In this document: piece by piece, positions 6,128 to 63,290 of the stretch
Position numbering within the stretch: the first letter of the stretch is position 1
How the letters are laid out: every line of letters starts with the position of its first letter
From: Paenibacillus hexagrammi
GTDB taxonomy: Bacteria > Bacillota > Bacilli > Paenibacillales > NBRC-103111
NCBI RefSeq assembly: GCF_021513275.1
Contig: NZ_CP090978.1
Coordinates: 5,187,247-5,251,246, forward strand
Reading direction: 5' to 3'
DNA: 64,000 nucleotides
Program-made: the position numbers and the translations under genes
The notes under the pieces: model-generated
The model's input: the letters and a program-made list of their open reading frames with translations, nothing else
What the model was told of the DNA's origin: nothing
Databases searched by the model: none

Positions 6128-6822
6128 CTATTTAAGTTGCAAGTCCAAAAGTCCATATTTCCGCTTATACCGCTCCATAATTCTCATCCAAGCCGGTCCT
6201 AAGAGTGACAAGAAGAACACGTTGCTAAGCGCATGTGCGAGGTCGAAATAAAAGCTGGAAGCATAGGCTGCCAGGAACGAGGCCCATGTGAGGTTTTGCC
6301 CCATGCTGGCCAAAAACCAAATATTCATGATCCATCCGAATACAAATCCCCAGACAAACCCGAAGATGGCTAGTGTGATGCGGCCCCTCAGCCAGCCCCA
6401 ACGGTACAATTGTCCGGCCGTCCAGCCGATCATGCCCCAGCCGAACATTTGCCACGGAGTCCACGGACCTTGACCAAGGAACATGTTCGAGACCAAGGCA
6501 GCGACTGCGCCGACCATAAATCCGGTTTCGGGCCAAAGACGACCGCGCATACGATGATAACAAAGGAGGTCGGCTGCACACTTGGCAATGCGGCAAAGGG
6601 AACGCGTCCTACCGCGGCTATAGCGGCCATCACTGCGATCAGCACGATTTCGCGAGCTTGCAGGGAGCGCTGCTCGAAGCGAAGAAAGAAGGGCACGATG
6701 GAAGCGCAGACCAAGAACAACGATAGTAGTAAATATTGCTCGTCATTCATCCAGGTCATGAACGCTAGCCCGCCTAAGAATAAGAGAAGTACGATGAGGA
6801 AAGAAACTCGTGTTCGAGCCAT
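6128..6822 (-). pseudogene. ECF transporter S (substrate-specific) component, split into two overlapping ORFs by a frameshift near 6540
   Basis: ORFs 6430..6822 and 6128..6550 are both polytopic membrane proteins. They join as ...VVFGP|ETGFMVGA... after a 1-nt insertion in a short C/G run. The locus sits immediately downstream of the ECF A and T genes. Confidence 0.6.
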
Positions 6823-6823
6823 G

Positions 6824-8554
6824 TTAGTTCCACCTCATTAGCTGGTTCATTGCCGTCGTATAGTACAAATTATCGCTAAAAAATAGCTTCGGGTCCTGCG
6901 CTGCCGTCAGCGTGCCATCGAACATCATGGTGCACCTTGTCGCATACTCGGCGGCAAATTCTATATCATGCGTGACCATGACAATTGTTTTGCCGATCCG
7001 CTTTAGCTCACGGAGCCTCTCCCCCCACTGCCGCTTGGCCGCGGGGTCCAGCCCCTTGGTCGGTTCATCCAGCAGCAGCAGGCTGGCTCCGGCAAGCAGA
7101 ATTCCCGCCAATGCGGCAAGCTGTCTCTCACCTTCGCTGAGATCATAGGGATGCTGCTTCAGCAGATGGAGAAGACCGAAGGTCTCCGCAGTTTGTTCCA
7201 AAGTCAGGCTCCCTTGCGAGCCCGCCCTTGCCATTGCTAGACTAAGCTCCTGCTCCACGGTCTCTTCGAGAAAATAGGTCAAAGGATTCTGATGGAGAAA
7301 TCCGACCCGCGCAGCCCGTTCATGGGCCTTCATTTTGCCAAGGTGATTGCCTTCCAATAGCACTTTTCCCTTTTGCGGCTTCATGATTCCCGCCAGGACC
7401 TTGAGAAGGGTGGTTTTGCCGGAACCATTCGCTCCGAGAATAGCTAAGCATTCCCCAGCAGCCACGCTCAGGGAAGCATTCTTCAGAACCGGCGCGATAT
7501 CCTGAGGCGTGTACTGCAGGTACACTTCGCGGCATTCCAAGAGGATAGGCTGGCGGTCGTTGCTGCTCGGTTTACTTGTCGAATCTCCTAGTCGGAACCT
7601 ATTTAATAGACTCATTGAGCTTCGCTCAGTTGTTTGTGGTGATTGAGCAGTCTGGCTTGTCTGGGTGGTCTGGGTGGTCTGGGTGGTCCGAGCAGACTGT
7701 GCGGACTGTGTAGCCTGATATCGCAAGGCTGCAAGCCATGCATGCTTACGACCTTCCTTGACGGTCAAGGGGACTTCCCTACTCACACCCGCTTGCAGAA
7801 ACAACCTTGGTATCGGCGGGACAAAATCTCTAGAATGTCCCACTTCGTTCGACCATAGCGCCTCGGTCACTTCGCGCGGTGTCCCTGAATGCTTCACTGA
7901 GCCGTCTTCCATAAACACCACCCGATCCACGATCGGCAGCAGCTCGTCAAAACGATGCTCAGCGATGATGATGGTGAGTCCAAGGTCTTGATTGATTCGA
8001 TGCAGCAATTGAATCAGTTCTCTGGCTGCGAGAGGATCGAGCTGAGCCGTAGGTTCGTCAAGCAGCAGCAGACGCGGCTGCAGAGCAAGGACAGATGCCA
8101 GCTGCACGAGCTGTTTTTGCCCGCCTGAGAGTTCAAATACTGGCTTGCTCAGCCAAGCATCCAGTCCAAAATAGTGGGACAACTCCGCCACTCTTCGTCT
8201 CATCAGCTCAGATTCAAAGCCGACGTTCTCCATTGTAAAAACAAGCTCGGACAGCACTCGGTCCGTTACCGTCTGATTCTCCGGGCTTTGCTGCACCATG
8301 CCGATGTGTCTAGCCATGAAGCTGTCATCATATGCGGAAAGCGGTTTACCTTCAAAAAGCACTTCCCCGCTACTTGTGCCGACGGGCGAAAGCTCTCTTT
8401 TGATATGCCGTAAAAGCGTTGTCTTGCCGCAGCCGGATGTCCCGCACAAGAGCACAAATTCGCCGGGCTGAACGGTGAGGTTGATTTGATCAAGAATGGT
8501 ACGTTCACTTGCCGGGTAACAGAAGCTTAGTTCTTGAATGTCCAAGATCGCCAT
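6824..8554 (-). CDS. ecfA: ECF transporter ATPase, fused tandem ABC domains (EcfA-EcfA') with a TTQ-repeat linker
   Basis: Two Walker A sites ('GANGSGKTTLLK', 'GTSGCGKTTLLR'), two 'LSGGQ/LSEGE' signatures and two Walker B 'LLLDEPT' sites. Linker 'TTQTTQTTQTSQTAQSPQTT'. Start set at the internal MAILDIQEL to limit overlap with ecfT. Confidence 0.85.
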   Translation of the reverse strand: MAILDIQELSFCYPASERTILDQINLTVQPGEFVLLCGTSGCGKTTLLRHIKRELSPVGTSSGEVLFEGKPLSAYDDSFMARHIGMVQQSPENQTVTDRVLSELVFTMENVGFESELMRRRVAELSHYFGLDAWLSKPVFELSGGQKQLVQLASVLALQPRLLLLDEPTAQLDPLAARELIQLLHRINQDLGLTIIIAEHRFDELLPIVDRVVFMEDGSVKHSGTPREVTEALWSNEVGHSRDFVPPIPRLFLQAGVSREVPLTVKEGRKHAWLAALRYQATQSAQSARTTQTTQTTQTSQTAQSPQTTERSSMSLLNRFRLGDSTSKPSSNDRQPILLECREVYLQYTPQDIAPVLKNASLSVAAGECLAILGANGSGKTTLLKVLAGIMKPQKGKVLLEGNHLGKMKAHERAARVGFLHQNPLTYFLEETVEQELSLAMARAGSQGSLTLEQTAETFGLLHLLKQHPYDLSEGERQLAALAGILLAGASLLLLDEPTKGLDPAAKRQWGERLRELKRIGKTIVMVTHDIEFAAEYATRCTMMFDGTLTAAQDPKLFFSDNLYYTTAMNQLMRWN

Positions 8555-8573
8555 GTCCACACCTCCTTTGCCT

Positions 8574-9413
8574 CTACGATGACCGGCACTGCAGCAAATA
8601 GCGTAAAGCACCCGTATGCCAGCAGTTCCACTCCTGTATGGATACTTCTCCAAGTGACGGGAAGATCTTGTACTCGCCGTAACCTAACATATGAAACACG
8701 ATACTGCTTATAAATAAAACGGAAAGCAGCCCCAGCAGACGAATGTCCCGGGGCATCAGCGCATACGCCTCATACCGGCTGCGCGTTCCCGAGCCATAGC
8801 CTTTTGCTTTCATAGCATCCGCCGTTTGCAGCGCTTCCTCCAGGCTGAGTGTCAGCAGGATTTGCAGCAGCTTCATGCCGTCGGTCATCCGTTTGCGTAA
8901 GCTGCCGTGCGCGATATTAATTCCTTTCATTCGTTGGACCGAAGCGATGTCGGTTAGTCTGCGCTTTAATAGCGGTACAAATCGCATGGACATGACGACG
9001 AGCAGCCCTATTTTCGGAAAATAGGAACCAAAGATATACAAAAACCTCGAAGGCGGCAGCACCGCGTTGAAGGAAATGAACAGCACCAGGATGTTGAGCA
9101 GGTTGACCGTGGAATATCCTCCATATGCAAGGGACTCAAGCGTCACCGGCTGATCCCAAAAATAAAACAAGATATGCCGCCCCCGATGAGAAAACAGCGG
9201 ATTGAGAAGAGCGTACAGCAAACTGATAGGAAGATAGAACTTCAGCATGCTGAGCAGCGCCCTGCTCTCGCGGTTTAACATCGTAAGCAGCACACCGGTC
9301 ATCAGGAGAGTCAGTAGATAGACAGGATGCGTAACGAGCATTCCGAGCAGCATAGCGCCGATGTAGTAGAAAAAGCATACGAACGGATGAAAGGAGCGAA
9401 AGCCGCTTTTCAT
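8574..9413 (-). CDS. ecfT: ECF transporter transmembrane T component (EcfT/CbiQ family)
   Basis: Polytopic membrane protein with CbiQ-like features ('RFVPLL', 'SLEEALQTADAMKAKGY'). Start chosen at MKSGFRSF, adjacent to the upstream stop. Confidence 0.8.
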   Translation of the reverse strand: MKSGFRSFHPFVCFFYYIGAMLLGMLVTHPVYLLTLLMTGVLLTMLNRESRALLSMLKFYLPISLLYALLNPLFSHRGRHILFYFWDQPVTLESLAYGGYSTVNLLNILVLFISFNAVLPPSRFLYIFGSYFPKIGLLVVMSMRFVPLLKRRLTDIASVQRMKGINIAHGSLRKRMTDGMKLLQILLTLSLEEALQTADAMKAKGYGSGTRSRYEAYALMPRDIRLLGLLSVLFISSIVFHMLGYGEYKIFPSLGEVSIQEWNCWHTGALRYLLQCRSS

Positions 9414-10408
9414 GGCATTTTCGCTCCGACGTCTTCGCCCAAATCCAGCGTGTACAGCCATTCGATTTTATCTCCTGGAGCTGCTTTATAGGAACCTGCT
9501 CCTTCGCCCGGAGCCTTTCCGTTCACTTTGTACACCCAACCGCTCTTAGGTCCGCGGTCAAATTCGTACAAATTATCGATGCCTTGGACATAAGCAAATG
9601 TACCCCTGCCTTGGTATTCCATTTGGATTTTATTTGCTTTGGTCACCTGCTTGAGCGCATCCAGCACGGTCATGCCTTCCTGAACAGGTACGGATGTCTC
9701 CTGCAAAATAGAGCCAAGCTTATCATCGCCTGTAATGCTGATACTAATAGCGGTTGTGGCTGGAGAAGGCGCTTGCTGGGAAGACGGCTCTGCCGTTCCT
9801 CCGCCACTTGCAGATGGCTGATTCGCTGAGTCTGCATTGGAGGAGGGCTCGACTGACCCTAGCATTGATGAAGAGGTGCTAGAGGCCGTCTGGGACCCGC
9901 CCGATGCAGATGTATCGGCACTAGACTGCAGAGTGTCTCCTTGTTCAGATGTATTGGCACTAGTAGACCGCTGGGGGGCTCCTTGTGATGATGCATTGGC
10001 ATCGAAGGTTTGTGCTTCTCCTTGCACGGTTGGATTTGCATTGGAAGAGGATTGGGCTCCTCCTTGTAGCGTGGCATTCGTACTTACGGATGCTTGAGCT
10101 GCACTTGTACCTGCGGCAGCCGACTCCGTACCGCCACTAAGCAGGCTCGAGCTGCCTGCTGCAGAGGCAGAGCTGCCCGGTTGACCTCCGTTGGAGGACA
10201 TAGTTGGGTCCGTATCCTGCTGTGCCGATTGATCAGCAGGTTTCGGGCCAGAGTTGTTTGTGCTGCTTACATGGAGACTGCCTGCCTTCGCATCGCTTCC
10301 ATTTGCGGCTGCCAGGTCAGATGAGCCAGCTTCCTGCTTGATGTGTGAACCGCAGCCTGAAGTAACAAGCATGCATGCTACTCCAAGCAGGATATACCAT
10401 TTATTCAT
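9410..10408 (-). CDS. Lipoprotein with S/A/G/T-rich linker and C-terminal DUF4430 (transcobalamin beta-domain-like) domain
   Basis: Lipobox 'LVTSGC'. Long low-complexity linker. C-terminal 'AYVQGIDNLYEFDRGPKSGWVYKVNGKAPGEGAGSYKAAPGDKIEWLYT' matches the DUF4430 pattern. Confidence 0.75.
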   Translation of the reverse strand: MNKWYILLGVACMLVTSGCGSHIKQEAGSSDLAAANGSDAKAGSLHVSSTNNSGPKPADQSAQQDTDPTMSSNGGQPGSSASAAGSSSLLSGGTESAAAGTSAAQASVSTNATLQGGAQSSSNANPTVQGEAQTFDANASSQGAPQRSTSANTSEQGDTLQSSADTSASGGSQTASSTSSSMLGSVEPSSNADSANQPSASGGGTAEPSSQQAPSPATTAISISITGDDKLGSILQETSVPVQEGMTVLDALKQVTKANKIQMEYQGRGTFAYVQGIDNLYEFDRGPKSGWVYKVNGKAPGEGAGSYKAAPGDKIEWLYTLDLGEDVGAKMP

Positions 10409-10491
10409 GATGAATCTCCTATCGTCATTTCTCTCAAAAAGGCAAGAAGGAGCCCCTTACAAGAAAGGGCTCTTCTTATCCTCAGCGATTC

Positions 10492-13400
10492 TTACTTTTT
10501 TGTCAATTCATAAGCTCTAACAGCTACGACAGCAGCCATCTCTCGAGTTGCCGAATCCTGCGGCAGGAATCTGCCGGACTCGTCGCCTTCCATGAGTCCT
10601 TGCTGTTGAACAGTTTGGATGTATGGTGCAGCGCCTTCAAATGCTTGATCTAAATCCGAGAATGAATCGGTCGCAGCATCAGCAGTTTCCAAATGCAGCG
10701 CTCTGGAAAGCATGATCGCCATTTCTTGGCGAGAGATCGCCGCATCCGGCGCGAAGCGGTCGTTGCTTACGCCTGTGGCGATACCCTTAGCTACTGCCTT
10801 CGCCACGTATCCTGCATACCAGGAGTCCGGCGCTACATCAGTAAAGCCAGTATTTACATCGGCAGAAGGAGCTTCACCCAGGATTCTCAGGAGGATCGCA
10901 GCGAATTGAATTCGAGTGATTTGTTTTTTAGGTTCAAAGGATGATTTTTCTCCGCCTGTTCCCTCAATTATATGATAGGCAGCGGCCTTCTTCACGGAAG
11001 GGAGTGCCCACGCTGCTATATCTGTTTGGTCTGCGAACACTGGAGCTGTTTCCGGCTGAGCTGGCTGGCTCACGTGGCTCGTGGACTTCAGGTAATTCTG
11101 GTATGCACCAAGTGCCATCAACGATTGCTCTGTAGCGATAACCTCCGATTGACCGTCCTTCGTATGAGGGAAAGAGCCGTCGCTCAGCTGCAAGCCTAGC
11201 AAGTAGGCCAGCATGCTTTTGTCACCGGAATGGAATTGCGGGTTGTTGACAGGATCAATACCGCTGACAGAAAGGCCCCAGATGACCTGCGCAGTGCTTT
11301 CGGCATTTTCCACACCCTTCAGTGTGAAACCGCCATCGTCGGCTTGCTGCGCGCTAAGCCATTTCACGGCTTTCTCCATGGCCGTTATTACGGTCGACTG
11401 TTCCTTGTAAGGTGTGAGTGCCGCCAACGCTGCTGCGGTCAAATCGGGCTCACCCTTCTCGCCCTTCGCCAGCGGCCAGCTGCCGTCTTGGTTTTGCGCA
11501 TCAAGGATCCATTGCAGCAGCTTTTCTGGTGTCCATTTCGCTTCTGCCGGGAGGTCATAGGAACCTCCGTGTAATGCAAGCAGCCCATAGATCGGGCCAT
11601 TGGTGCCCTGAATTTCCATTTGTTCGTTATTGTAGATGCGTTCGATCAGGTTAAAGCCGCCTATCGACTGAGGATTGCCTCCGGCAGCCTGAACGCTTAA
11701 AGCTAACCGTTCATAATCCGTCACTTTGCGGAATGTACCGTTCTTTTCCTTCAGCATGGCTATCACACTATCTAGATAGTTCGCGCTTACCGGCACACCT
11801 GCTGTATGGAGGGCATACGCCGACCAGTCACTGAGCTCGACTCCGTTCTTCAGCCACTTGGAAGCACGATCGATGGCAGGTCCAACATCTACAGAGGTGC
11901 CAGTTGTTGGCTTTTGCTCCAGTTTGGATCTATTAATAACAGCAAATTTCGTAAAATGGTTGACTAACCCTGTGACTGTTCCAGTCTCCGCATCAATGAC
12001 AGCCGGGATTGGAATCCATTCACCGGTCTCCTCGTTTAGCCAGACTAGCGCCAATTGACTTAAGTCCTCGGCTGCGAGTGGTGTTTTGATCGAGATTTGA
12101 ACGGGCTTGGCGTAGGTCAGACCTTTGGGGCCGAATTCAAAAATGGGTGAAACGAGCTCTTCGCGTTCTTGTGATGAAAGCTTGTTGACGGTAATGATTT
12201 TGCTTTCAGCTAGCGCATTCTCTGGGATTTGCAGCTTCACTTCTGATTTGGCGTCAGTAATTTCAGTTGCCGTCTTCGCTTGTGCTGTCTTTTCCAATGC
12301 AACCGCATTGCCTGCCAATTCTTTCTTGAGCGCTTCCGCAGCGGAAGCGGACATTTTCTTATCCGCATTGACAATCACTGCAGGCTTGGAAATTTGTTGA
12401 ATTGGTTTCTTGTTGTCGTAAGCCAGCTCCAGATTTTTCACTTTATCTGCGACTTCAGAGGTAGATGTTCCTGTTGCTGTAGTCGCTCCACCGCCTACTG
12501 GGGAAGGTGCGTTCAAATCATTGCCACCGTCTTTCGTATAACGCCAAGATACGGAGTCGCCGGACTTCAGTAGTACCGAGTCTGCGCCTGTACTCAAGTA
12601 GCTGCCGTTAACTGCGTACATCCATCCGCTTAGCGGCCCCTCGTCGAATTCTCTTAAACCGTCTATGCCCTGCACATATGCGGTTGAGCCCGAGCCCGAT
12701 GATTGAACACGGTTTGCTCCCAACGTGCGAATCAACAAAGAGTATGGTGTGTCGCCGCTCTGTAAGGCAACCGACCTTGTGGAAAGGATGGTTCCCTTAT
12801 TACTATCACCTGTCACGGAGAGGTAGACGATTGGGCTTCCTCCCGTATTCGTGCCTCCGTCTACTCGGGGCTGAATGGTAATCGGCTGCGACATATGGAC
12901 AATGATCGGAGTGCTGTTCGCCTTGTACCCTGAGATGTCCATATCATACGATCCAGCAGGCAGACCCGCGAATGTAACTGTGCCCTGGCTGTCCGTTACC
13001 GCTGTTAGTCCGCCGACTTTTACTTGGACGCCTTCCGCTGGTGAAGGCGTGTCGAAGCCGGATGTTTTTAGAATATTTACGGTGAAAGATTCGTTCGCTT
13101 TCGGCTGCGAAGGGTTTAGTGTTATGGAATTGACCAGGAAAGTGGTCGAGTTCCAGTCAGTATCAAATCCGCTGAAGTAAACGACCGCTCGTTCACCTGG
13201 GTGAAGCGTATAGTCTGCCATCCCTACCATAGGAATGGTCCATTTGCCTTGGCTGTAGATCGCGTAGCTCCATGCATCGGCATCGGATTCGATGGATTGC
13301 AGATACCCGTTATCTATGTGCTTATGAATCTGATGCTCTACCAGGATGTTTTCGATACTATCCAACAAATTAGGCGAGTTCGCCGCATCCACAGCAAAAG

Positions 13401-15021
13401 TTTGGGATGAACCCTCAATTTGAATCATAGCTGTGCCCACTTCAAAAGACTTGGAAGCAGCAGCGATCTTAGGTGCAGTCCCTGTCTGATAACCTGACAC
13501 TACTGCTTGATAGGTTCCACCGGAAAAACCGGCGGGGAATTGAGCGACACCGTAGGTGTCTGTCTGCACGGTTTGCCCGTTTATCTCCACAGAGACGTTC
13601 TCAGCCTCTTTGATATTTTCTTGATGGTTTTGATAATCATACACGGATTGATAAACCGTTACTGTAACCGCCTCACCTGCAACGGGCAAGGCAGGGTCTA
13701 TCGTGATCGACTGAACGAGTGCTGTACTATACCCTGTGTAGTACAAATACACGTCATCGCCAGCACGCAGTTGGTAATCGTGCATGTTGGTGGCACCAAC
13801 GGTTGCGTAATCCCATGATCCTTGACGCTTAACGTTGTAATACCACCATGTGTTACCGGTTCCACTTATGCCGTTAACGGCATGGAAATAATGACTTCCA
13901 TCTGCATCAAATGATACGCCCGAAGCCTGCAAAACCTGCACAGCCGCATCAAACGCATTACTCGCCGTCACCGCTCCTTCGGCCAAAATACCTGCCGGAC
14001 CTGCGACGTGAACCGTCACACTCGCATCCGAAGATGACCCACCGCCGATGACGGGTACAGATACATACGACCCGCTGTTGCCCCCGGTAAACGCATCATA
14101 ATCCACTAATGCCATTAAAGCCTGACCAGTTGCACCTGTATCCGAAGCACTGCTACTTGTAAGATGGACGAAGCCGCCGTCACTTCTGCGGTAGGTAAAC
14201 AGATAGCTGAGCGGATTTCCGTTAGCTTTGGTAAAGCTGGCGCTGCGCGCGTCTACACCTGCTGCGGAAAGTCCAATAATCACCTGTGCGGTACTCTCGG
14301 AATTTTCCCCGTACTCGGTAAATCCTCCGTTGTCTAATTGCTTCGAAGAGAGCCATTGAACGCCGCCTTCAATCGCTTGCTGGACAACTGGCAAGTCTTT
14401 ATACACGGAAAGGGCTTTAATTGCCGAAGCCGTGATATCGATGCTGCTATCGCCACCTGACGAGAGCGGGAAGCCGCCGTCGGCGTTCTTTTGCGTGAGC
14501 AGCCACGCTGCGATTTTATCCGGTTTCCACTTCGCTGTTAACGGAATATTGTACGCTCCGCTGCTTAAGGCTTGCAGGGCATAAATCGCACCGTTGCTGC
14601 CTTGCGCCGTCAGTACATCGCTGTTATAGATGCTCTGAATCAGATTGTACGTCCCGGTTCCCGTTACAACCTGCTCGGGATTACCGCCTGCAGCCTTCAC
14701 GGCCAGTGCTATCCTTGCGTAATCGGTGACGTTGTTGTATTGGCCGTTTTTTAGTCCGACCTGACTGCTGACCGAGGATAAATACGATGCCGGTACCGAC
14801 TTACCTGCTTTCGCTAGCGCATAGGCATCCCAATCGGTAATGTTGTCTCCGTTCGCTGCTAATAGATAGCCAGCTGCATCCTCTATCGCTTGCGGGACGG
14901 TTACAGTCCCTTGATCTCCTTGATCCGCATACACCGGCACAGCTCCGCTAAAAGCGGAAATGAGCAAACACCAGATCAGCAGGATCATGCTTACTTTTTG
15001 TACGACTTGCTTTCTTTCCAT
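10492..15021 (-). CDS. Giant (1509 aa) secreted S-layer-anchored protein: 2 alpha/alpha-toroid (prenyltransferase/terpene-cyclase-like) domains, 3 DUF4430-like modules, 3 C-terminal SLH domains
   Basis: Signal peptide. Repeated 'Q..DGGF'-type motifs (QKNADGGFPL, KQLDNGGFTEYG, RRSDGGFVHL, QNQDGSWPL, QQADDGGFTL). DUF4430-like segments around 'WWYYNVKRQG', 'WSYAIYSQGKW' and 'LSGWMYAVNGSY'. Three SLH repeats at the C-terminus. Confidence 0.8.
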   Translation of the reverse strand: MERKQVVQKVSMILLIWCLLISAFSGAVPVYADQGDQGTVTVPQAIEDAAGYLLAANGDNITDWDAYALAKAGKSVPASYLSSVSSQVGLKNGQYNNVTDYARIALAVKAAGGNPEQVVTGTGTYNLIQSIYNSDVLTAQGSNGAIYALQALSSGAYNIPLTAKWKPDKIAAWLLTQKNADGGFPLSSGGDSSIDITASAIKALSVYKDLPVVQQAIEGGVQWLSSKQLDNGGFTEYGENSESTAQVIIGLSAAGVDARSASFTKANGNPLSYLFTYRRSDGGFVHLTSSSASDTGATGQALMALVDYDAFTGGNSGSYVSVPVIGGGSSSDASVTVHVAGPAGILAEGAVTASNAFDAAVQVLQASGVSFDADGSHYFHAVNGISGTGNTWWYYNVKRQGSWDYATVGATNMHDYQLRAGDDVYLYYTGYSTALVQSITIDPALPVAGEAVTVTVYQSVYDYQNHQENIKEAENVSVEINGQTVQTDTYGVAQFPAGFSGGTYQAVVSGYQTGTAPKIAAASKSFEVGTAMIQIEGSSQTFAVDAANSPNLLDSIENILVEHQIHKHIDNGYLQSIESDADAWSYAIYSQGKWTIPMVGMADYTLHPGERAVVYFSGFDTDWNSTTFLVNSITLNPSQPKANESFTVNILKTSGFDTPSPAEGVQVKVGGLTAVTDSQGTVTFAGLPAGSYDMDISGYKANSTPIIVHMSQPITIQPRVDGGTNTGGSPIVYLSVTGDSNKGTILSTRSVALQSGDTPYSLLIRTLGANRVQSSGSGSTAYVQGIDGLREFDEGPLSGWMYAVNGSYLSTGADSVLLKSGDSVSWRYTKDGGNDLNAPSPVGGGATTATGTSTSEVADKVKNLELAYDNKKPIQQISKPAVIVNADKKMSASAAEALKKELAGNAVALEKTAQAKTATEITDAKSEVKLQIPENALAESKIITVNKLSSQEREELVSPIFEFGPKGLTYAKPVQISIKTPLAAEDLSQLALVWLNEETGEWIPIPAVIDAETGTVTGLVNHFTKFAVINRSKLEQKPTTGTSVDVGPAIDRASKWLKNGVELSDWSAYALHTAGVPVSANYLDSVIAMLKEKNGTFRKVTDYERLALSVQAAGGNPQSIGGFNLIERIYNNEQMEIQGTNGPIYGLLALHGGSYDLPAEAKWTPEKLLQWILDAQNQDGSWPLAKGEKGEPDLTAAALAALTPYKEQSTVITAMEKAVKWLSAQQADDGGFTLKGVENAESTAQVIWGLSVSGIDPVNNPQFHSGDKSMLAYLLGLQLSDGSFPHTKDGQSEVIATEQSLMALGAYQNYLKSTSHVSQPAQPETAPVFADQTDIAAWALPSVKKAAAYHIIEGTGGEKSSFEPKKQITRIQFAAILLRILGEAPSADVNTGFTDVAPDSWYAGYVAKAVAKGIATGVSNDRFAPDAAISRQEMAIMLSRALHLETADAATDSFSDLDQAFEGAAPYIQTVQQQGLMEGDESGRFLPQDSATREMAAVVAVRAYELTKK

Positions 15022-15082: not shown

Positions 15083-15189
15083 ATTACGCTTTACGCATAG
15101 ATTAGCTGGCCAGATAGATGTACAAAAGGAAGTACACTCATGCAGCCGTTTCCCCCTCTCCTATTCCCGCGTAGGCGATGGTACTGACA

Positions 15190-15350
15190 TTCAACAGATA
15201 TCCTGACTTGCGGATCGTAGCTAATCTCCCGTCTTCCCATCCTTCTTAAAAAGGATAGTGACATCTTGAAAGCAGCTCCCCGCTTACAGTGGCGCGACCG
15301 TGCCGGATTCTCACCGGACTTCCCTGTTTGGTTACCGAATGCGGACTGAA
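15190..15350 (-). promoter_or_regulatory. Cobalamin (B12) riboswitch aptamer
   Basis: The minus strand reads '...GGGAAGUCCGGUGAGAAUCCGGCACGGUCGCGCCACUGUAAGCGGGGAG...AAGUCAGGAUAUCUG'. The conserved GGUG/AAUCCGG core, the GCCACUG motif and a B12-box-like AAGUCAGGA all occur in canonical order. Confidence 0.8.
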
Positions 15351-15386
15351 AGGCCTTAGCATACGGTTCACTTTTAATCACTAAAA

Positions 15387-23552: not shown

Positions 23553-23864
23553 CTAAATTAATTCTTCAAAGTTTCGTTTTCCATATAAAACTCTCCTAAT
23601 TTCCACGATATTGTCATATACGACGTAGAATACAAGATAATTTTCAACTACCAGTACCCGGTATTCATCCTCAAGCCTGTGATTATTTCGATATAGGTGT
23701 CCAGATAATAGGAATTTCTCCAAATTGGAAATGGCCTTATCCAGCTTATCGACAAGATCCATTGCTGCTTGTCTTGCAAAAAGCTGATTGCTAACGTAAT
23801 CAACAATTCCTCTTAAATCTGAACGAGCCAGTTCGATATAACATAATGTATACTTATTTTCCAT
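23553..23864 (-). CDS. parE: Type II toxin, ParE/RelE superfamily
   Basis: 103 aa with a ParE-like C-terminus ('VVYDNIVEIRRVLYGKRNFE'). Confidence 0.6.
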   Translation of the reverse strand: MENKYTLCYIELARSDLRGIVDYVSNQLFARQAAMDLVDKLDKAISNLEKFLLSGHLYRNNHRLEDEYRVLVVENYLVFYVVYDNIVEIRRVLYGKRNFEELI

Positions 23865-24092
23865 CTGCGCTCCCTTTAGCTTGAAATATTGAAACTAATT
23901 GCTCAATCAAAAAGAGCTGAATTCAAGTTGTTCCATTCTAGAGAAGCCAATCAGCTTGATTGCGGTTATTAAGGAATTAAAAAAGAACTAGCAGGTTGCA
24001 CGCCACCTACCAGTTCTAGATCAGTTTATTGCGTGAAAGAGCTCAATGGTTCTCATGTAAAGCCGTTTCCACGAGTTTCTTGTTACTTTAGC

Positions 24093-24365
24093 TCATTCAC
24101 CTTGTTTGAGTTGTCTTTTCAACTGATCGAACACTACAGCATGGCTGTACCGTACTTTGGAATTCTTTGCTTCTAATTCTGCTTCTTTCAGTTTTATATA
24201 AATCTCATTTCCGGACTGAATGCTCTCATATTGTTCTATGCTCATAACCACCATATCACCATGCCCATTTTTAGTAAGAAAAACGGGTTCACGGCTTTCG
24301 TGGACTATCTTAGAAATTTCAGCAAAATTGTTTCTTAGGTCAGAGACAGGTCTGATTTGCGGCAT
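24093..24365 (-). CDS. Type II antitoxin, Phd/YefM family
   Basis: 'MPQIRPVSDLRNNFAEISKIVHESREPVFLTKNGHGDMVVMSIEQYESI' is a classic Phd/YefM N-terminus. A 228-bp gap to parE is unusually long for a TA pair. Confidence 0.65.
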   Translation of the reverse strand: MPQIRPVSDLRNNFAEISKIVHESREPVFLTKNGHGDMVVMSIEQYESIQSGNEIYIKLKEAELEAKNSKVRYSHAVVFDQLKRQLKQGE

Positions 24366-24489: not shown

Positions 24490-25606
24490 TTATCTGGATT
24501 CAGAAGAAGTTTCCCGAAACGGCCTAAGAAACGGCTTAGGGATATCTGTTTCAAACCGCAAGAGGTGGCCTTGTACGGGATGTGTGAAAGCTAACACTCG
24601 AGCGTGGAGGCCCAATCGTCTCAATTCCTTTGACTTGGAGCCATATTTTTTATCTCCCACAATGGGATGCCCAATGTCTTGCATGTGGACGCGAATTTGA
24701 TTTTTTTCGCCCTGTTTCGAGTTGGACTTCCAGTAAGCTAAAGTTACTATTGGACTGCACAGTTTTGTAATGTGTCACGGCGTGTTGGCCGTCGTTAGGA
24801 CGATGACTGGAATACATCTTTAGTGTGCTGCTTTCTTTCAACCAAGACGAAATCGTACCTTCCGGTTTCTTCACTCTGCCTTCAACCAATGCAACGTACG
24901 TACGCTCCTTAACGATGTCCTGCCAGGAGTTCTGAAGCAATTGTTGGACCCTTTCGCTCTTGGCGAACATCATCACACCGGAAGTATCTCGATCTAGACG
25001 ATGAACAACAAAAACCCTGCTTCCAGGATCTTTCATTCGAACATGAGCCATGAGCTGTCGGTAAGCCGTCACTTCGGTTTCTTGAGGAGAAGCGATCGAC
25101 AGTAGACCGGCTTCTTTGTGAATGACGATAATATCCTCGTCCTCATGCAGGATCTTTAGCCCGACCAGCATCGGTTCCTCAACAACTTTATCCTTACTAA
25201 TAGTTACCGTTTGTCCAGGTTCAAGGGGATAATTGTATGCTGTCTCGACCCGATCGTTAACGGTTACTTGTCCACGAGCCAGTAAGGCTTTGACAGAGTT
25301 CCGACCGAGTTTGGATTGTTTATGCAATAAAAAAAGCAGCAGTTCCGTTGGCTCTTCAACGGTATATTGACTGATATTGGGACGATTGGGAGCCTCCTGC
25401 TTGCCTCCCTTGCTGCTCGAATTGCCACCGAACTTCGAATTCCCCATCTGTTTCTTCCTATTTGAGCTTGCCGGTGCGCCTTTTACAGCGTTCATATTTC
25501 CCTTCTCCTGCCTTGCTTTTCCTGGTCCCGCTCCATGTGATGTTTTCCGTGAGCCGCTGCTAGCTCCACGCGTTAGCGGCTGTGACTTTTTTGATCCTTG
25601 CGTCAT
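24490..25606 (-). pseudogene. RluA-family (RluD-like) pseudouridine synthase with S4 domain and ~90-aa basic N-terminal extension; frameshifted at an 8-nt poly-T tract (~24697-24704)
   Basis: 'HRLDRDTSGV' catalytic motif in ORF 24650..25606. The C-terminal 'HMQDIGHPIVGDKKYG...LHAR' continues in the overlapping ORF 24490..24684. Confidence 0.7.
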
Positions 25607-25827: not shown

Positions 25828-26650
25828 ATGAGAGAAACGTTAGCTAGAAATATTAGCAGGTACCGCAAAGACAAAGGCCTTACCCAAGATGAGCTGGCCC
25901 GGGTACTTGGACTTTCTTTTCAAGCGGTGTCCAAATGGGAGAATGCCCAGACCATGCCTGATATCACGCTGCTGCCGCAGCTATCCCAAATTTTAGAGGT
26001 AAGCATCGACAAGCTTCTGGGATATGTGTCGCAAGATAAGTCCATTACGATCTACGAGGAAGAATATAAAACGCAGGACTATTACTGGGGAACCGAGCCT
26101 AATTCGGCTTGCTTTCAGGTTTTTCAGACCATGCCGCCAACGAAGCGTCTGAAATTATTAGATATTGGCTGCGGTGAGGGAAAGGATGCCGTGTTTTTTT
26201 GCTAGAAATGGCTATGAGGTGACTGCCTTTGATATTTCCGATGCGGGGATTGAAAAGACGAAACGACTAGCCGATGCGGCCCGAGTTCATGTTCATGTGT
26301 TTAAAGCGGATCTTGCCGACTATCGTTTGGACACTTCGTTCGATATCCTGTTTTCAAGCGGCGTGCTGCACTACATCAAACCGGAGCTTCGCGGGGAAAT
26401 ATTCACGAACTACAAGCAGTTTACGAATCCGAATGGGTTGCATGCTCTGAATGTTTTTGTTACAAAGCCTTTTATTGCTCCGCCGCCGGAAAAGGAACCC
26501 AATGCGTTCCCTTGGCACTCGGGAGAACTGCTGGCTCATTATCATGATTGGAGGATTGGGGATAGTTCAGAGGTTATATTCGACTGTCATTCATCGGGTA
26601 TTCCTCATCAACATGCGATGACGAAAATCATGGCGAAGAAGGTTGTTTAG
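25828..26650 (+). pseudogene. XRE-family HTH fused to SAM-dependent methyltransferase (TehB-like), split by a frameshift at a T7 run (~26195-26201)
   Basis: N-terminal HTH ('LTQDELARVLGLSFQAVSKWEN'). MTase motif I 'LLDIGCGEGKDAVFF' at the end of ORF 1 continues as 'ARNGYEVTAFDIS' at the start of ORF 2. Confidence 0.7.
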
Positions 26651-26765
26651 TTGGGTGGAGGCTGATCTTCGTATTATGATATGAAAATCAGCTTGTTCCC
26701 CTATAGCTATGATTAAAGAAAGAATGAACCTTGTAAATTGCTCTATTGACGCACCTGACAATTGA

Positions 26766-29700
26766 CTATTCAAACGCCTCATTTCTATTACTGTCCCGTG
26801 TCTGTTCCCATTCTCTCACTTTTCGAATGCTTTGCTCAAAATTAACTTCTTCTTTTATTGCCCACTCAGCTACCATGACGTTTTCATGGCCTTTAAGTTC
26901 AGTTAGTAAAGCTAGACGAGTCTGTAAAATATTAGCTAGGGATCCACTCCATGATGGTGGTCTAAAAGATTCTTTGAAATGATTAAGTACTTCTACAGGG
27001 CTTGGCGCTTGTATAATAAATTGTTTTGCTAATTTTGTCCAACAAACTACCCCATTATCTTCCATCGATTTATAAGGCATAAGTATTGAAGCAGCTGTTA
27101 TGAACCTTTGTGTAGGTTCTTCTTTACACCAATCGAGAAGTATTTCATCATCAATATGTGCTAATGGATTTTTAGGTCTAATACTATGGAAGATCCAATA
27201 CATATCGTCTATTGTTTCCTCGTTCAGAAACGTATCCATGAAAACAATTGGTTGGGTAGCTGCAAGTGCCACGAGCACATCGTCATAATCCGTGGAATAA
27301 ATGTCGTGCTCTATGAATGCTTTAAGAAGTCTCGAGCATAAAAATCGAACCAGTTCCGTTGAACCTCTATCTTTCATACAAATTTTTATGATTGTCGACA
27401 GCTTTGAATCCAAACTATGAATAGAGTTATCTTTTCGTAAAAAAAGATAACGAGAAATAAGCTCATAAGCAGACTCCTTGATAATTTTACTTATTTGATC
27501 AACATTCTGTCGGTGAATTCTCATATATAGAAGTTCAATAGATACAGTTATCCCTTCTTCATTATTAGAAATTAATGTTAGTAGTTCTGAAAGCTCAAAA
27601 TCACTAATTTCATGCCTTCTTGCATAAGCTAATTGTCTATACATCCACATAGGTGCTTTCCCAACTACTAGTGATTGCTTAAGTCTTTCAACACCTTTTG
27701 AATCTAACTGCGTGCTACTCTGTAATAAAGGAAAAGCTGCACTCCATACTGGATCGACAACTGCTGTATTCAAAAGATCGTTACATAATTGTGTATCTCT
27801 AAGAGACAGCTCATCTAAAAATCCTCCAACAGCTTGATAGTTACGTTTTGATTCATCAATTTTTTGCAAATAGATTCTTAAGATCTCCCATACCATTTTA
27901 GGGTTACTACACCCTTCAGCGAGACCTTGACCGAAATAAAATAATCTATTCCCTGATTCAGATAAGAGCTCTGGAAGCAATTCTATATAAATTTCCTCGT
28001 TCAGGCCTACTTCCTTACCTATTGATCGTGTTATTTTATCTACCATTTCATAACTTTTTTCGGGATCTTCGTCGTCATCTTCAAGTACATCAATTAAATC
28101 GTATGGATGACCTTTTGAAAAAGCGTACAATCTTGCTCGCTCAATTAACGTTGATGGTATTAGTATACGTTCCAATTCTTCTAATTGTTTTATTATTTCA
28201 GTACTCATTTCCTTGTTATCATACCTGAGGATGGACTTTACAGCTATCCATCCCTCTTTCCATACAAATTTCTTCGAGATAGTGATAGCAGCCGAATATA
28301 ATTCGTCGAACATACCAACACCTACCCAGAGTTCCCTAAACCTTTCAGCTAATAGATTCATTGCTTTGTTCGAGAACCCCAAATCTGAGATACTAACGTT
28401 AACAGCATAGTCAATAAACAACTTGAACCATCGAATTACTCCATCATTTGTTTGAGGGAAATAACCATAGTCCCTTGAATGTGCACCAAATTCGAAATCA
28501 TTATATGAACTAATACTCCATGCTTGGAGAGAAGCACTTAACAAAGAGAATCCTAACTCAATCTTTTCGTTTTGCTTTGAATACAACAACCTCTCAATGA
28601 CACTTAGCCTCTGAACGGCCGTAGCATGAGTACCCGAAAGCTTTATATAAAACAGCGATTGGAGCGATTTTCTTATAGAGTTCTGATTTTCATTCTGTCT
28701 TTCTGATAACGCAAAGTGGCAAAGTAAATCAGTTGATCGGATAAACATTTCTTTTTCATATGCTAAAGACCTCAAAAGTCTCGTAATTTGTAAATAATGA
28801 TGGTTCTCGCGACTAAAAAACCACTCGCTTCCTTTTTTATTAGCTGCTCTTTCAATTGCTTCTAGTGTTTTTTCAGGATCAATAGGCGCAACATTAATTA
28901 ATAAATCTATCCCTAATGAGTCTAAACTCAAAACATCCCCCAAAAGTCCTTCTTCAACTAACCACATTCTACTTATTTCCCTTGCCGCTTTGCAATCATG
29001 AAGGTATCTAAGACGTCGGGAGAATGATCTCATAAGTCTTTCTGATGCCCGATTTCCAAAAATATTCAAGATAAACTCAACAGGAATATCTTCAAGTGCA
29101 CGTTTTGCCAACCTGTTAGCAACAGCATGTGGCAACACTGCTCTCCATATGCCACGTTGCTGAACTAACTCGCGGCGTTGTAATTCCTTAACAAATTGAT
29201 ATAGTTTCAGCACGGGGATTCCTATAATAGAGCTTAGGATTTCTAATTCACCATCTTTACCTTGATCAATTTGGCAGTTAAAAGAATAAACAAGTGAACA
29301 AACCTTAGCAACACTAAATAGATCATCACTAGGCTCATTTCGCTGTAAAAATAATCTCGTGAATAGATCCTCATCCTTTAGATGAGAAACATCATCACCG
29401 TGAGAAATCGTTTTACATAGTGCGATAGCAATACGTGCATTTCCTCCTGAAAAATTAGCAACAATTCTAGTACAAACTTCATTAATATGCGGAAAGCGAA
29501 TCTGAATAACCTTTTCCACTATTTCCTTAGAAGCAGGTTCTAATCGAAAAACCTCTGTTTCTTCCGGTTGATCTTCTCTTACATCATATTCAATAGTAAT
29601 CAAACTTACTTGACTACCATTTGCCAAACATATTGTTGTTAGTGGCTTATGCAAACTCGGTGGACAATTATCGATTGCCAATAAAGAATATTTTCGAGTA

Positions 29701-30569: not shown

Positions 30570-30735
30570 GATCAGCTGTCACCCCTATTTCAAACGACTA
30601 AATTCTCTTTTTTCAATACTAGGCTCATGTTATTTATCAAAATTCTTATTCTCCATTTATGAAAATTGTTTACTAGAACAAGAATAAACCGTCCTTTCAC
30701 TTATCTCGTGATAGACGGTAAAATTAAAACCGGAT

Positions 30736-31131
30736 TTATATTTTTATTAAAGAAACACCAAGCTCGTTTTGGACAAAATTCATATCGGAATCTCGAGACA
30801 ATAAAGTTAATTCATTAACCATAGCAGTTGCAATAATGATAGCATCAGGTGTTTTAAGCTTACGCCTTTTTGCTTTCTGCTCCCTACGAATGATCCCGGC
30901 TAGCTTTGCACTCTCCGAAGTCACCTCTAAACATCTCCTTGAGGTAAATAGCTTTTCTGCACGCAGTTGTTCCTCTGGTTTTAAACCCGCGAATACTTCA
31001 CATTCTGTAATCGTAGAAAAGTAGATAGACATTTTATCTCTCGCAGCTTGCTTGATAAAATCGATTACGTTTTTCTCGTTAATCAATATGGCTATCGCGA
31101 TATTTGTGTCAAGTAAATAACCTCGACTCAT
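30736..31131 (-). CDS. vapC: PIN-domain toxin VapC
   Basis: 'YLLDTNIAIA' N-terminal PIN acidic motif and 'DAIIIATA' C-terminal motif. Confidence 0.75.
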   Translation of the reverse strand: MSRGYLLDTNIAIAILINEKNVIDFIKQAARDKMSIYFSTITECEVFAGLKPEEQLRAEKLFTSRRCLEVTSESAKLAGIIRREQKAKRRKLKTPDAIIIATAMVNELTLLSRDSDMNFVQNELGVSLIKI

Positions 31132-31361
31132 GAATCCCATTCCTCACGTGAGCGTTTCACTTCATCAAGTAGTTCTTTGCCTCTGTCCGGTGTTAAAGTC
31201 CCCGCAGCCTCAAGAAGATCATCGATGGAATACTCATCATCTTCGGCTTCAACGGTTTGTCTTTCAAGATCAATGGTCACCCGGGAGTGAGTTATCTGAA
31301 ATTTTTGAAGCATAACTTTAATAGCATTTGCAGTTTGAAGATCAATCTTTTTGGGGATCAA
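31128..31361 (-). CDS. vapB: Putative VapB-type antitoxin
   Basis: Small acidic protein directly upstream of vapC with a 4-nt overlap. Confidence 0.45.
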   Translation of the reverse strand: MIPKKIDLQTANAIKVMLQKFQITHSRVTIDLERQTVEAEDDEYSIDDLLEAAGTLTPDRGKELLDEVKRSREEWDS

Positions 31362-31444
31362 CGGTATCCCTCCAATCCCTTTTTATATATTCATTATACC
31401 ACATGCTTTCATGCCACAGACACCAATACGCTCATGGCTCCCCC

Positions 31445-33095: not shown

Positions 33096-33964
33096 TCAAT
33101 CCTTGTAAGGATCAAATTCGTCGGCTCCCGCCATGCATACCCCGATCGGCTTCAACACATGAAGAATTTCGATGGTTTCCGAGTGAGCATCCAGGACCTC
33201 TTGCAGCTTCCGGTACACAAAAGGACTCTCATCCGTCCCCGCGCCGCGGAGCTCTACGCCGTACTTACGGACGGCTTCCAGCATTTGTTCTATGGAGATT
33301 TGACCGCCGCTGCGGGACTTCGTTTTCCAATTCATTTTGCCGGCAGCTTGGGTACGGCTCATAATTCTACCGGCTCCATGTACGGTGCTGTAATAAGCGT
33401 CCCTGTTCTCCGCGGAATCCTTCCCCTGTACGATGACCGATATGTCCCCCATACTTCCACCAATAAAGCCCAATTGTCCTGGCGCCGAAGGCGTTGCCCC
33501 CTTGCGAACCACTACCGTCTGCTTACCTTCGTGCTCCTCCATCCAGGCAAAATTATGATGATTGTGCACCTCGAATTCCGCTTCCGCGGATCATCGAACA
33601 GCTCATGATCGACCTTCTCACTATTAGCCCGCCCTATACCAAACGAAACTTTACGTGCAATCTCATCCATCCAGCGGCTCAAGTGAGGCATTGCCTCTTG
33701 AATGTGGATATTCGTCCGAACCGCCTTGTTCCCGCAGGCAATATCATAGCCGACACCCGAGGGTGAAATTTGCCCCTCATAGGCGATCACACCGCCAATC
33801 GGCTGACTGTACCCTTTGTGATGGTCCGCCATCAGCAGAGCTTGTGCCACGCGTCCGGTGCTCGCACACATTTTGGCTTGGGCCAGTGCGCTTTCATCCG
33901 CCTTGCCCCATACTCTCACGCCATCTATCGACTGATAAGCCATGATCATCTGCTCCTTTATCAC
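33096..33964 (-). pseudogene. rtcB: rtcB RNA ligase remnant: N-terminal and C-terminal parts present, ~150-aa central region deleted, plus a frame change
   Basis: N-part 'MADHHKGYSQPIGGVIAY...GVGYDIACGN' and C-part 'EFEVHNHHNFAW...GFIGGSMGD...STVHGAGRIMSRT' align to the ends of E. coli RtcB. The GNHF/HSGSRG central motifs are missing. Confidence 0.75.
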
Positions 33965-59646: not shown

Positions 59647-61475
59647 CTACAGGACTATCGGAACTCGAATTCGCACGACGGTTCCTTTTCCCCATTCACT
59701 CTCGATGTCTAGGCCATATCTGCTTCCATAATGGGTCTGCAGACGATTGTGAACGTTAAACATACCGAAACCATGCCTTCCCTTCACGATATCCGTTTTA
59801 TTCAGCTTCGCTTTGATCTCAGCCAGTTTGTCCGCAGGAATGCCCGCTCCGTCATCCGAGATCTCAAACACAATATCTTGCAGATCCCGATACCCTGTAA
59901 TTTGGATCAAGCTCCAATCTTCGGTTTCCTTGACACCATGATAGATCGCGTTCTCCACGACCGGCTGCAGGATCAGCTTGATTACTTTGCTTGGTGCGAT
60001 CTCCGGGTCAATTGAAATTTCATAGTGGAAGGAATCACCGTAACGCATACTCAATATCACAAAGTAATTTCGAATGAGATCAATCTCTTCCTCCACCGTA
60101 ATAACCTCTTGCCCGCTGCTCAGACTCGTCCGGTAGAAGTTGGACAGCGCCAGTACCATGTCGCTAGCAGCCTCATTATCCTTGAGGTCCACCAGCTGTT
60201 TAATGGCAAACAGTGTATTGTACAAAAAATGCGGCTTGATTTGGGCCTGCATGGCATCAAATTCGGCCACACGCTTGTGCTCCTGCTCCACTTTAATTTC
60301 TTCGAGCAATCGGCTTACACTTTTCACTAGACGACCGATACTGCGGTTTAGCACGCCGATCTCGTTATGCACATCCACATCAAAATCCACATCCAGATTT
60401 CCGCTTTCAACTTTATAGACCTTCCGCGTGAGAGTAGCTAGCGGCTTCGTCAGCACCTTAGCCAGCAGGTTGGAGAGTAGTACCGCAATCAGAATGACAA
60501 GCAGCGTAATGGCCAGAAACAAGTACTTCGTGCTGCTCAGCTTATTTAGCAGATCGCTCTCCGGATAAACCGCCACAACCTTCCACTGATTCACTTTCAG
60601 AGTATCGAAGACCACAAACACTCTTTTACCATGCGGTTTAATGAAGCTAAAGGTCCCCGAGGACTCCGAGGTATGAGTTAGATAATCAATAACCTTGTCA
60701 TCCAGCTGCTCATTCGGTTCAACAGATTTGAAGTTCATGACTCCACCTCCCCCACCAGCGCTAAATAGCCGTGTTCACTGATTTGGGGATTCGCCAGAAT
60801 GTCCACGAACCAGCTTTCCCGCAGCTGAAAAGATAGAATCCCTTTTACCAGAGAATCCTTATCGCCTATTATTCTTTGCAGACTTACGGTTTTATCGTCA
60901 GGCGGATTCCGGTCTGCTATAATGTTATTTTGCAAATTCAACCATACATAACCGTCATTCCTGCCGCCGTATCGATCATAAAATTCATTAAAATTAAACT
61001 TGATGTTATTGACGTTGAAATCTTTCTTCTGTACGAGGACCTTGCCATCATTCAAAATGACAAAAATAGAATCCAGCATGGAATAGTAGGTGTTGTAAAT
61101 CCGATCCACGCTTTGATTTAGACTTAGATAATTCTCCGTCTCTACGTCCGAGTAGTAGCCTAACTGGTTCACTATGGCATTTGTATTCGATTCTTCCGCC
61201 AGTATAACCAACTGTTGAAACACATCACTTAACCGGTTATCCAAATAATCTCTCGTCTGCGTGACCGTATCCATGATGTTCACACTGGCACTGCTCTGGA
61301 CTTGCCTAACCGAGATTAAGTAGGAAAAATACCCCATGATGATCACAATCATCATAATGGAAGGGATAAACAAGTAGATGATCATGGATTTCAGGGGGAA
61401 CATGGTGTTCATCCACCTGTTTTTGATCTTTTGCAATACGCCATGAAATAATGTCGGCATCAGGAACATCCCCAT
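59647..61475 (-). pseudogene. YesM-like sensor histidine kinase split into two ORFs (60735..61475 TM1+sensor; 59647..60738 sensor rest+TM2+HAMP+kinase) meeting at an ATGA overlap just after a G5 run
   Basis: The combined length (246+363 aa) and domain order equal a single YesM-type kinase. Adding one G to the GGGGG run at 60750-60754 fuses the frames as ...ALVGGGGVMNFKSV.... Confidence 0.6.
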
Positions 61476-61716
61476 TTAGGTAAATTCGGGCTGAGTAAAA
61501 GAGAGGATGACCGCATCATGGTTGATGTGATCATCCTTTATCGGAATATTTAAGGAAGCTTGTATACATGATGATTCGACATATCGTGTCGAATTCCTGT
61601 CAAACAGCGCTCTTTAAAATGGATGAGGTTCGTAGTGACAAGTGAATATGAAAAAAGACCCCTGACATTCAGAGGTCATCAACTTGCTTATTAAGCTTGG
61701 GTTTGTTGGTGAAGCA

Positions 61717-63290
61717 CTACCTCAAAAGCATATTCTCCGGCAGCGGGACGACCGTTTGAATGATATAGCCTGCGCTGCCGTTTTGAGCCATTGAGTCGCT
61801 TGTAGTGGCGCCAGCGCCGCCGTTGCCGCCACTGGCTCCGCCTCCGCCACCGCTGTTAATCGTTGCCGATCCTCCCGATGTTGATCCGTAAGCTCCGCCG
61901 TTAACCTGTACCGTACCTGTGATCGAAGCTGCGCTAGTCGAAATCAAATGCACGATCCCGCCGCCACCGCCGCCACCGCCACCTTCGGAGCTGCCGCCAT
62001 TGCCGTCAAATCCGGCACTTCCGCTGCCGCCGTTCGCCTGTATGGATCCCATAATGCTCATGGCTCCTTTGGCGGCAAGAACGATGATACCGCCAGCGCC
62101 GCCGCCGGCTCCTGGAATACCCAAACCTGCCGTATTCGGATTTGTTCCATTGGCTCCATTGGCCCAGATTGATGCTCCACTTGTTACAGTCAGATTATCT
62201 TTGGCAATCATCACGATAGAGCCGCCGCCTTCTCCACCTGTTGCCGAAAGATCACGGCTGCCGGCCCCCCTGCTGCCGCATCGGGCAAGGCGATACTTGC
62301 AGCGGTGAGATAAGAAATGCCTTTGCCCCCGATGCCGGGTGCCGCTGCAGATAGAGATATGCCGGGATGCGGGCTATAAGGATTCGTATTCATGGCTCCC
62401 GGCATCACCTGTATGGCGCCTGAAACGGTAATGCTTCCTGTTGAACGAAGGATCGTACCGCTAGGTACCTTCAACGTACCTGCAATCGAAATACTGGTGA
62501 ATTGCAGGTTTCCACCATAATATGGGCTTCCCGAAGTGAGGGAGGTTAAGTCAAGGGTTTGACCTATGGACACGCTTAAAGCTCCAGCCGATCCGTCTCC
62601 GTAAATGCCGTTGTCGCCCGAGAGACCCTGCGGACCTACTGCTCCTACTGGTCCTTGGATACCTTGTATGCCCTGAGGCCCTGCAGGACCAGCCGGACCA
62701 GCGGGGCCAGCAGGGCCTTGCTCACCTGTATCACCTTTGTCTCCTTTGATCCCCTGGGGACCAGCTGCACCTGCCGGCCCCTGTGCACCCGGATCGCCCT
62801 TGTCTCCCTTCTCTCCTTGAGGGCCCGCAGGACCCATCGGACCGGCAGGACCCTGCTCGCCGGTGTCACCTTTGTCCCCTTGGACTCCCTGAGGACCGGG
62901 TGCACCCGCTGCGCCTGCCGGACCCTGTGCACCTGAATCGCCCATGTCTCCCTTCTCTCCTTGAGGGCCCGCAGGACCCATCGGACCGGCAGGACCCTGC
63001 TCGCCGGTATCACCCTTGTCCCCCTTTATTCCCTGAGGACCCGCTTCTCCTGCAAGACCTTGCTCGCCCACCGGGCCCATAGGACCTTGATCCCCCTTCA
63101 CATTAAGTGTGTACTCCGTTTGGTTCGCCTCACAACTGCTGCCGGGAGCAAGCAAATGGATCTGCCCGTTACTGCCGACACAAATTTCGATGGTATCCAA
63201 CAGTGTGGAATTCGCCCACGCCCCTGGGATTTGTGTGCCTAACAGTAACACACTCACTGCCACGGCGATTTTTCCTTTTAATGTATTCAT
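61717..63290 (-). pseudogene. Collagen-like triple-helix repeat surface protein (BclA-like) with Gly-rich beta-helix-like C-terminal domain; reading frame broken at a C7/G7 tract (~62266-62272)
   Basis: Signal peptide and >60 G-X-Y triplets with 144-bp internal repeats. The downstream ORF 61717..62214 continues the Gly-rich 'GGxGG' C-terminal domain in another frame. Confidence 0.7.

Follow-up and report, generated by a model that had tools for sequence, protein, structure and literature searches.

Six single-base frameshifts in a 64-kb window of the Paenibacillus hexagrammi YPD9-1 genome are probably residual homopolymer errors of a long-read consensus

A stretch of 64,000 nucleotides from the genome of Paenibacillus hexagrammi YPD9-1 (contig NZ_CP090978.1, positions 5,187,247 to 5,251,246; hereafter the window) contains several genes that are each divided between two open reading frames (ORFs). 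This arrangement raises the question of whether the genes have been disabled in the bacterium or are broken only in the deposited sequence. The original prediction, which was made from the letters of the window, was that the splits coincide with mononucleotide runs and represent an indel-error signature rather than true pseudogenes. Our analysis produced six genes with a single-base frameshift: those for an energy-coupling factor (ECF) transporter S component, an RluA-family pseudouridine synthase (Rlu), a methyltransferase fused to a helix-turn-helix (HTH) domain, an HTH-WYL-WCX regulator, a YesM-like sensor kinase, and a collagen-like protein. We assign a probability of about 0.7 to the explanation that all six are residual errors of homopolymer length in a long-read consensus.

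At six places in the ORF map, two same-strand ORFs abut or overlap in different frames. At each of these places, a change of one base yields a single ORF with zero internal stops (Table 1), as had been predicted for all six genes. To repair the three A/T runs, a base has to be taken out of each; each of the three G/C sites has to gain one. The six repaired proteins all align with intact homologs without a gap over the junction. A single Pfam or NCBIfam domain bridges the junction in five of the six (by Pfam), and the sixth repair re-creates the domain order HTH-WYL-WCX. Moreover, the homologs of all six genes are uninterrupted single ORFs, and the frameshift is conserved in none of them. Each frameshifted gene carries one lesion, past which the frame stays open for 64 to 363 codons. 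There is no further disabling lesion in any of the six genes, and residues that are invariant in the respective families are kept 3' of the breaks.

The window holds 39 genes, among which are the six single-base frameshifts and one deletion, in rtcB. The remaining 32 have domain matches that are complete and unsplit. In-frame nonsense codons interrupt none of the genes, and the defects consist of indels only. Three additional pairs of overlapping same-strand ORFs (3457-4353/4299-4793, 8574-9461/9410-10408, and 15631-17517/17414-18169) were considered as frameshift candidates and rejected; they are separate genes with complete domains.

Table 1. Disrupted genes of the window, with the nucleotide interval in which a one-base change restores a single ORF
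Feature	Position in window	Strand	State	Interval permitting repair (nt)
ECF transporter S component	6128..6822	-	split into 130-aa and 140-aa ORFs	310
RluA-family pseudouridine synthase with S4 domain	24490..25606	-	split after codon 303; extra A in A6 run	122
HTH_3 and TehB-like S-adenosylmethionine (SAM) methyltransferase fusion	25828..26650	+	split; extra T in T6 run	41
HTH-WYL-WCX regulator, 438 aa	34216..35533	+	split into 208-aa and 224-aa ORFs	20
YesM-like sensor histidine kinase (dCache, HAMP, His_kinase, HATPase_c)	59647..61475	-	split into 246-aa and 363-aa ORFs	37
Collagen-like protein, conserved Gly-rich C-terminal domain	61717..63290	-	split into 359-aa and 165-aa ORFs	160
rtcB remnant	33096..33964	-	N-terminal part (33512-33964) and C-terminal part (33096-33569) in different frames	

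Homologs permit the breaks to be placed more narrowly than these intervals. The break falls exactly at a mononucleotide run in the Rlu, methyltransferase, and collagen-like genes, and is narrowed to 8 nt (the A7 run and the T that follows it) in the WYL regulator and to a G-rich segment of 12 nt in the kinase. In the ECF S gene it maps to codon 98, where the run is only C3. The claim that the splits occur exactly at runs is accurate for three genes, nearly so for two, and unconvincing for the ECF S component. The proposal that runs were undercalled likewise holds for only half of the sites. One base is lacking at each of the three G/C sites, as undercalling requires, whereas each of the three A/T runs has a base too many.

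The most direct comparison is available for the Rlu gene. A T8 run had been reported near 24700; the site is right, but the run is T7 (plus strand, 24701-24707). The repaired protein was compared with a set of representative genomes from which the source genome is absent, and the Rlu site is the only one that is comparable there. The sequence ETGRKNQIRVH is invariant, and encoded in a single frame, in 80 related genomes. At the DNA level, the nearest relatives carry CGAAAAAATCAA, whereas the window carries CGAAAAAAATCAA, which is longer by one A. The comparison with relatives therefore bears out the proposed break. The best relative is 88% identical, and synteny with the methyltransferase gene is not kept. 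An exact DNA scan of metagenomes for the Rlu site, in which A6 or A7 was permitted, gave 0 matches. The repaired protein passes the TIGR00005 model (219.9 bits; cut-off 192.7), matching positions 7-293 of 298 in one stretch, and covers positions 1-151 of 152 of Pfam PseudoU_synth_2.

In the methyltransferase gene, the T7 run expected near 26198 is present at 26194-26200. Fifteen metagenome relatives (57-79% identity) match residues 1-272 of the repaired protein in one segment. At the break, 15 of 15 encode GCGEG[KR][DN]AVF[FL]ARNG[YF] (GCGEGKDAVFFARNGY), and the relative designated L089 carries GTGTTTTTTGCG, which has a T6 run in place of the T7 run of the window. The TehB structures 4dq0 and 2xva also align without a gap over the site (...GCGEGKDAVFFARNGYEVTAFD). 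The antitoxin UJF32623 and a 1267-aa protein, UJF32624, are numbered consecutively even though the Rlu and methyltransferase genes lie between them; these two genes are therefore without protein identifiers. The simplest reading is that the existing annotation already counts both as pseudogenes.

The HTH and WYL fragments, which had been listed only as a possible case, belong to one frameshifted gene. The repaired protein matches a 445-aa homolog end to end (62% identity; residues 1-438 versus 1-441) and also matches, without interruption, dozens of proteins that are about 415-450 aa long. Pfam detects an N-terminal HTH, a WYL domain at residues 233-318, and a WCX domain at residues 350-431. 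Repair takes one base out within AAAAAAAT (34818-34825), in which A7 occupies 34818-34824. Deletion of the T that follows A7 produces GLKKHF, which is nearer to the homologs (GLKKHF, GLRKH) than is GLKNHF, the product of deleting an A. To judge from this comparison, the surplus base may be the flanking T rather than a member of the A7 run.

The remaining three genes lack a base. For the collagen-like gene, the site proposed near 62269 is correct, whereas the reported C7 is a C6 on the plus strand (62265-62270); repair places one G into the corresponding G6 run. The 297-aa C-terminal domain that bridges this break has homologs with 47-56% identity and 99-100% coverage, and their AAGGAGxR motif (invariant G114, G115, G117, and R119) locates the missing base at the end of the G run. 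In the kinase gene, the G5 run expected near 60752 is found as C5 of the plus strand at 60749-60753. One base must be added in the G-rich 12-mer GGGGGAGGTGGA; it could have been lost from a GG pair or from the G5 run. The repaired 609-aa kinase aligns ungapped over the junction with eleven homologs of about 590-620 aa, and Pfam dCache_1 spans residues 76-302, bridging the break at residue 243. The C-terminal fragment of the kinase has been deposited as a stand-alone protein (UJF32640 / WP_235118988).

For the ECF S component, a short C/G run near 6540 had been named as the cause. A run is indeed present, but it is merely the 3-nt GGG of the plus strand at 6530-6532, and a homopolymer cause is unconvincing. 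Repair adds one base to codon 98 (GGC CC- GAA). The resulting 231-aa protein aligns ungapped with 11 homologs of 59-80% identity. F96, G97, and E99 do not vary in this alignment, and beyond the break the protein retains about 60 invariant residues. Pfam ECF_trnsprt matches residues 57-203, across the junction.

The window contains 16 runs of 7 nt, 52 runs of 6 nt, and none longer. Four of the breaks sit on these longest runs (A7/T7 in three cases and G6 in one). If one flanking nucleotide is counted at either end, runs of at least 6 nt occupy 0.88% of the window. The chance that at least four of six random sites would fall on such runs is P = 8.7e-8, and the chance that at least three of six would fall on runs of 7 is P = 2.3e-7. 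The ECF S site adds nothing to this test, because 25% of all positions touch a run of at least 3 nt. The association of the breaks with the longest runs is strongly non-random. For lengths of 4 to 7, the run counts of the window equal those of GC-matched relatives (1.19 Mb). The window has no A/T run of at least 8 nt (3.4 expected) and no G/C run of at least 7 nt (1.2 expected), where about 4.6 are expected together; the Poisson probability of this absence is about 0.01, a value that does not allow for overdispersion. The missing tail of long runs may reflect compression of runs by the sequencing platform.

If the frameshifts are consensus errors, the organism would possess six intact genes, and the lesions would exist only in the deposited sequence. 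Runs of A6 or T6 would have been recorded as 7 in the Rlu, methyltransferase, and WYL regulator genes. G/C-rich runs would have been recorded one base short: the collagen-like G7 as G6, the G-rich stretch of the kinase, and perhaps the ECF S site. The extra and missing bases would presumably have arisen during sequencing or consensus calling, not in the cell. The P. hexagrammi YPD9-1 assembly consists of one 6,569,197-bp contig, a state that points to the use of long reads. Intact proteins of the window match deposited P. hexagrammi proteins exactly, for example UJF32622-32624, UJF32627, UJF32629, UJF32630, UJF32639, and UJF32640, all of which derive from this contig and reside in single-member clusters. 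Exact look-ups of the broken fragments and their intact neighbors in a contig index, and in a protein index, found no second assembly of P. hexagrammi.

The density of frameshifts is about 1 per 10.7 kb, which would correspond to roughly 600 in a genome of 6.57 Mb if the window is typical. This high density, the lone and clean lesions, the conserved downstream frames, and the absent long runs favor consensus errors. In long-read-only bacterial assemblies, residual errors are mostly ORF-breaking homopolymer indels, and their number per genome is of this order (PMC8812927, PMC9262707). Nanopore sequencing tends to underestimate runs and reads G/C runs worse than A/T runs, in agreement with the loss of one base at each of the three G/C sites (PMC8486125). 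The window resembles such assemblies (PMC8812927, PMC9262707, PMC8486125, PMC12007338) in its single-base indels in runs, in its adjacent same-strand ORF pairs that jointly match a full-length homolog, in the hundreds of frameshifts implied, in the complete single-contig genome, and in the shortened G/C runs. It differs from them in that half of the events are an excess of one A/T base and in that the ECF S break is off any meaningful run.

These differences count against consensus errors, as do several other observations. The three A/T events are gains, whereas nanopore sequencing mainly shortens runs (PMC8486125). The ECF S break is associated with a run of 3 nt only, and repair within this run gives Pro98, whereas the 11 homologs have Ser, Ala, or Gly at position 98 and none has Pro. 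Codon 98 may originally have been TCC or GCC, and the loss of its T or G would then be a deletion outside any homopolymer. The frameshifted genes are all dispensable accessory genes, and four of the seven lesions lie within or beside an island with toxin-antitoxin and defense-like genes, where real pseudogenes are common. The window also contains one undoubted real pseudogene, rtcB. Finally, replication slippage hits homopolymers too, at a rate that is exponential in run length (PMC8510543). Because real slippage also targets runs, the location of the breaks at runs does not by itself discriminate between the two causes.

The frameshifts could thus be real and recent slipped-strand mutations that have left young pseudogenes in dispensable genes. 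Mismatch repair might be weakened in this lineage, or the mutations might have followed laboratory passage, and selection would not yet have removed or degraded the genes. We consider this explanation possible but clearly the less probable one. In its favor are the position of the breaks at indel hot spots whose indel rate climbs exponentially with run length (PMC8510543), the non-essential nature of the six genes, the presence of a real pseudogene in the same window, and the several lesions in or near the low-GC accessory island. Real A·T insertions into A·T runs have been documented as a mutation class in Bacillus subtilis, and A/T runs that are one base too long are unusual for the nanopore bias. 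The gains and losses of one base in runs, the preference for the longest runs, and the restriction to dispensable genes are likewise as in slippage pseudogenes and mismatch-repair-deficient mutators (PMC8510543). The window departs from such cases (PMC8510543) in its very high density of frameshifts and in having neither nonsense mutations, secondary decay, nor a tail of long runs. Mismatch-repair-defective lines accumulated 30,061 substitutions versus 5,324 indels, or about 5.6 substitutions per indel (PMC8510543). Despite this excess of substitutions in mutators, no nonsense-split genes are present, although this argument is weak in that few substitutions create stops. Real mutation also does not predict that long runs would be missing. 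Six independent frameshifts without decay, each the single lesion of its gene, are far more than we would ourselves expect among 39 genes of a free-living bacterium with a 6.6-Mb genome. The predicted error signature is supported, as against old pseudogenes, by the density, the lone lesions, the kept residues, the single contig, and the missing long runs, but these do not separate consensus error from very recent slippage.

It is very doubtful that some of the breaks are functional, either through phase variation of the collagen-like tract or through decoding of the A7/T7 runs by programmed frameshifting or transcriptional slippage. A surface location is plausible for the collagen-like protein, which carries a hydrophobic leader at its N-terminus and has a neighbor with SLH domains. 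As in phase-variable contingency loci, a G/C tract resides in a putative surface gene and its length sets the frame. However, phase-variable homopolymer tracts are typically 8 nt or more, and the tracts considered here are only 5-7 nt. The collagen-like tract, at 6-7 nt, is located mid-gene (about codon 340), codes for the invariant Gly-Gly, and is in frame in homologs, all of which is unlike contingency loci. Phase variation of the surface protein, which had been raised as an alternative, is therefore unlikely. With regard to recoding, the Rlu site resembles a slippery heptamer in that its zero-frame reading is A AAA AAA. However, X XXY YYZ heptamers promote -1 frameshifting, whereas the A7/T7 sites require +1, and no stop or rare codon directly follows the methyltransferase run. 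Every homolog of all six genes is, moreover, an uninterrupted ORF. Phase variation and recoding are both unlikely on this evidence. There is also little to recommend a broader proposal, in which the frameshifts are real, the lineage has elevated slippage, and some breaks serve as low-rate switches (the collagen-like G tract, A7/T7) or are rescued by slippage. If this highly improbable proposal were true, a free-living Paenibacillus would possess a group of contingency genes with short tracts.

The most likely cause of the six frameshifts is an ordinary and already well-known assembly artifact. If they are consensus errors, the reference for type strain YPD9-1 probably holds several hundred false frameshifts, and its gene content, pseudogene counts, and metabolic and defense inventories would be biased until polishing. 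In the window, such bias would affect, for instance, an ECF transporter under B12-riboswitch control, a two-component kinase, and a WYL regulator. Were the breaks real, they would be ordinary young pseudogenes, and neither outcome raises a new biological question. The YPD9-1 genome needs polishing ahead of any interpretation of its gene content.

The rtcB lesion is of a different kind, and the internal deletion proposed for this gene is real. The two fragments match positions 6-97 and 278-424 of the 426 positions of Pfam RtcB, and residues 42-145 and 328-482 of P. horikoshii RtcB. Because the fragments overlap in the DNA, about 180 model positions are truly absent. By these alignments, rtcB is a pseudogene with a real internal deletion of roughly 150-180 codons, not a homopolymer event. 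The deletion junction lies at ~33567-33585. Because the fragments are in different frames, the deletion is not a multiple of three or an extra indel is present. The ~540 bp between the slipin gene and the rtcB remnant (32558-33095) contain only junk-looking ORFs, with zero Pfam matches at E <= 0.1 and zero Rfam matches at the gathering score; this segment may be additional debris of the rtc region. In the span 32557-35520, the identifiers leave room for only one protein (UJF32628) between UJF32627 (slipin) and UJF32629 (a second WYL protein). It follows that the majority of the rtcB and WYL gene fragments either lack an annotation or are labeled as pseudogenes.

Beside the dead rtcB, two tandem WYL proteins are arranged head to head with a 1628-aa DUF5724/DUF4132/DUF7737 protein (34216-41483). 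The first WYL protein is the frameshifted regulator; the second has 268 aa, and an HTH was not detected in it.

The low-GC island extends from 26000 to 32000 and has a GC content of 37-43%, versus about 48-50% for the window. It encodes the 1267-aa protein, which has weak P-loop matches only and is named in UniRef as a Mrr-type restriction endonuclease domain protein, as well as a slipin/SPFH protein and a PIN toxin that is preceded by a small partner. Just upstream of the island, at 23553-24365, is a ParE/Phd pair.

The frameshifted ECF S component is the last gene of an operon on the minus strand (6128-15021). Other genes of the operon encode a 1509-aa SLH/DUF4430/prenyltransferase-like wall protein, a DUF4430 lipoprotein, a CbiQ-type T component, and a fused double ABC ATPase. 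A full-length cobalamin riboswitch (RF00174; 94.6 bits; 15176-15365, minus strand) resides upstream of these genes. Judged by its gene content and this RNA element, the operon looks like a B12-regulated ECF uptake system.

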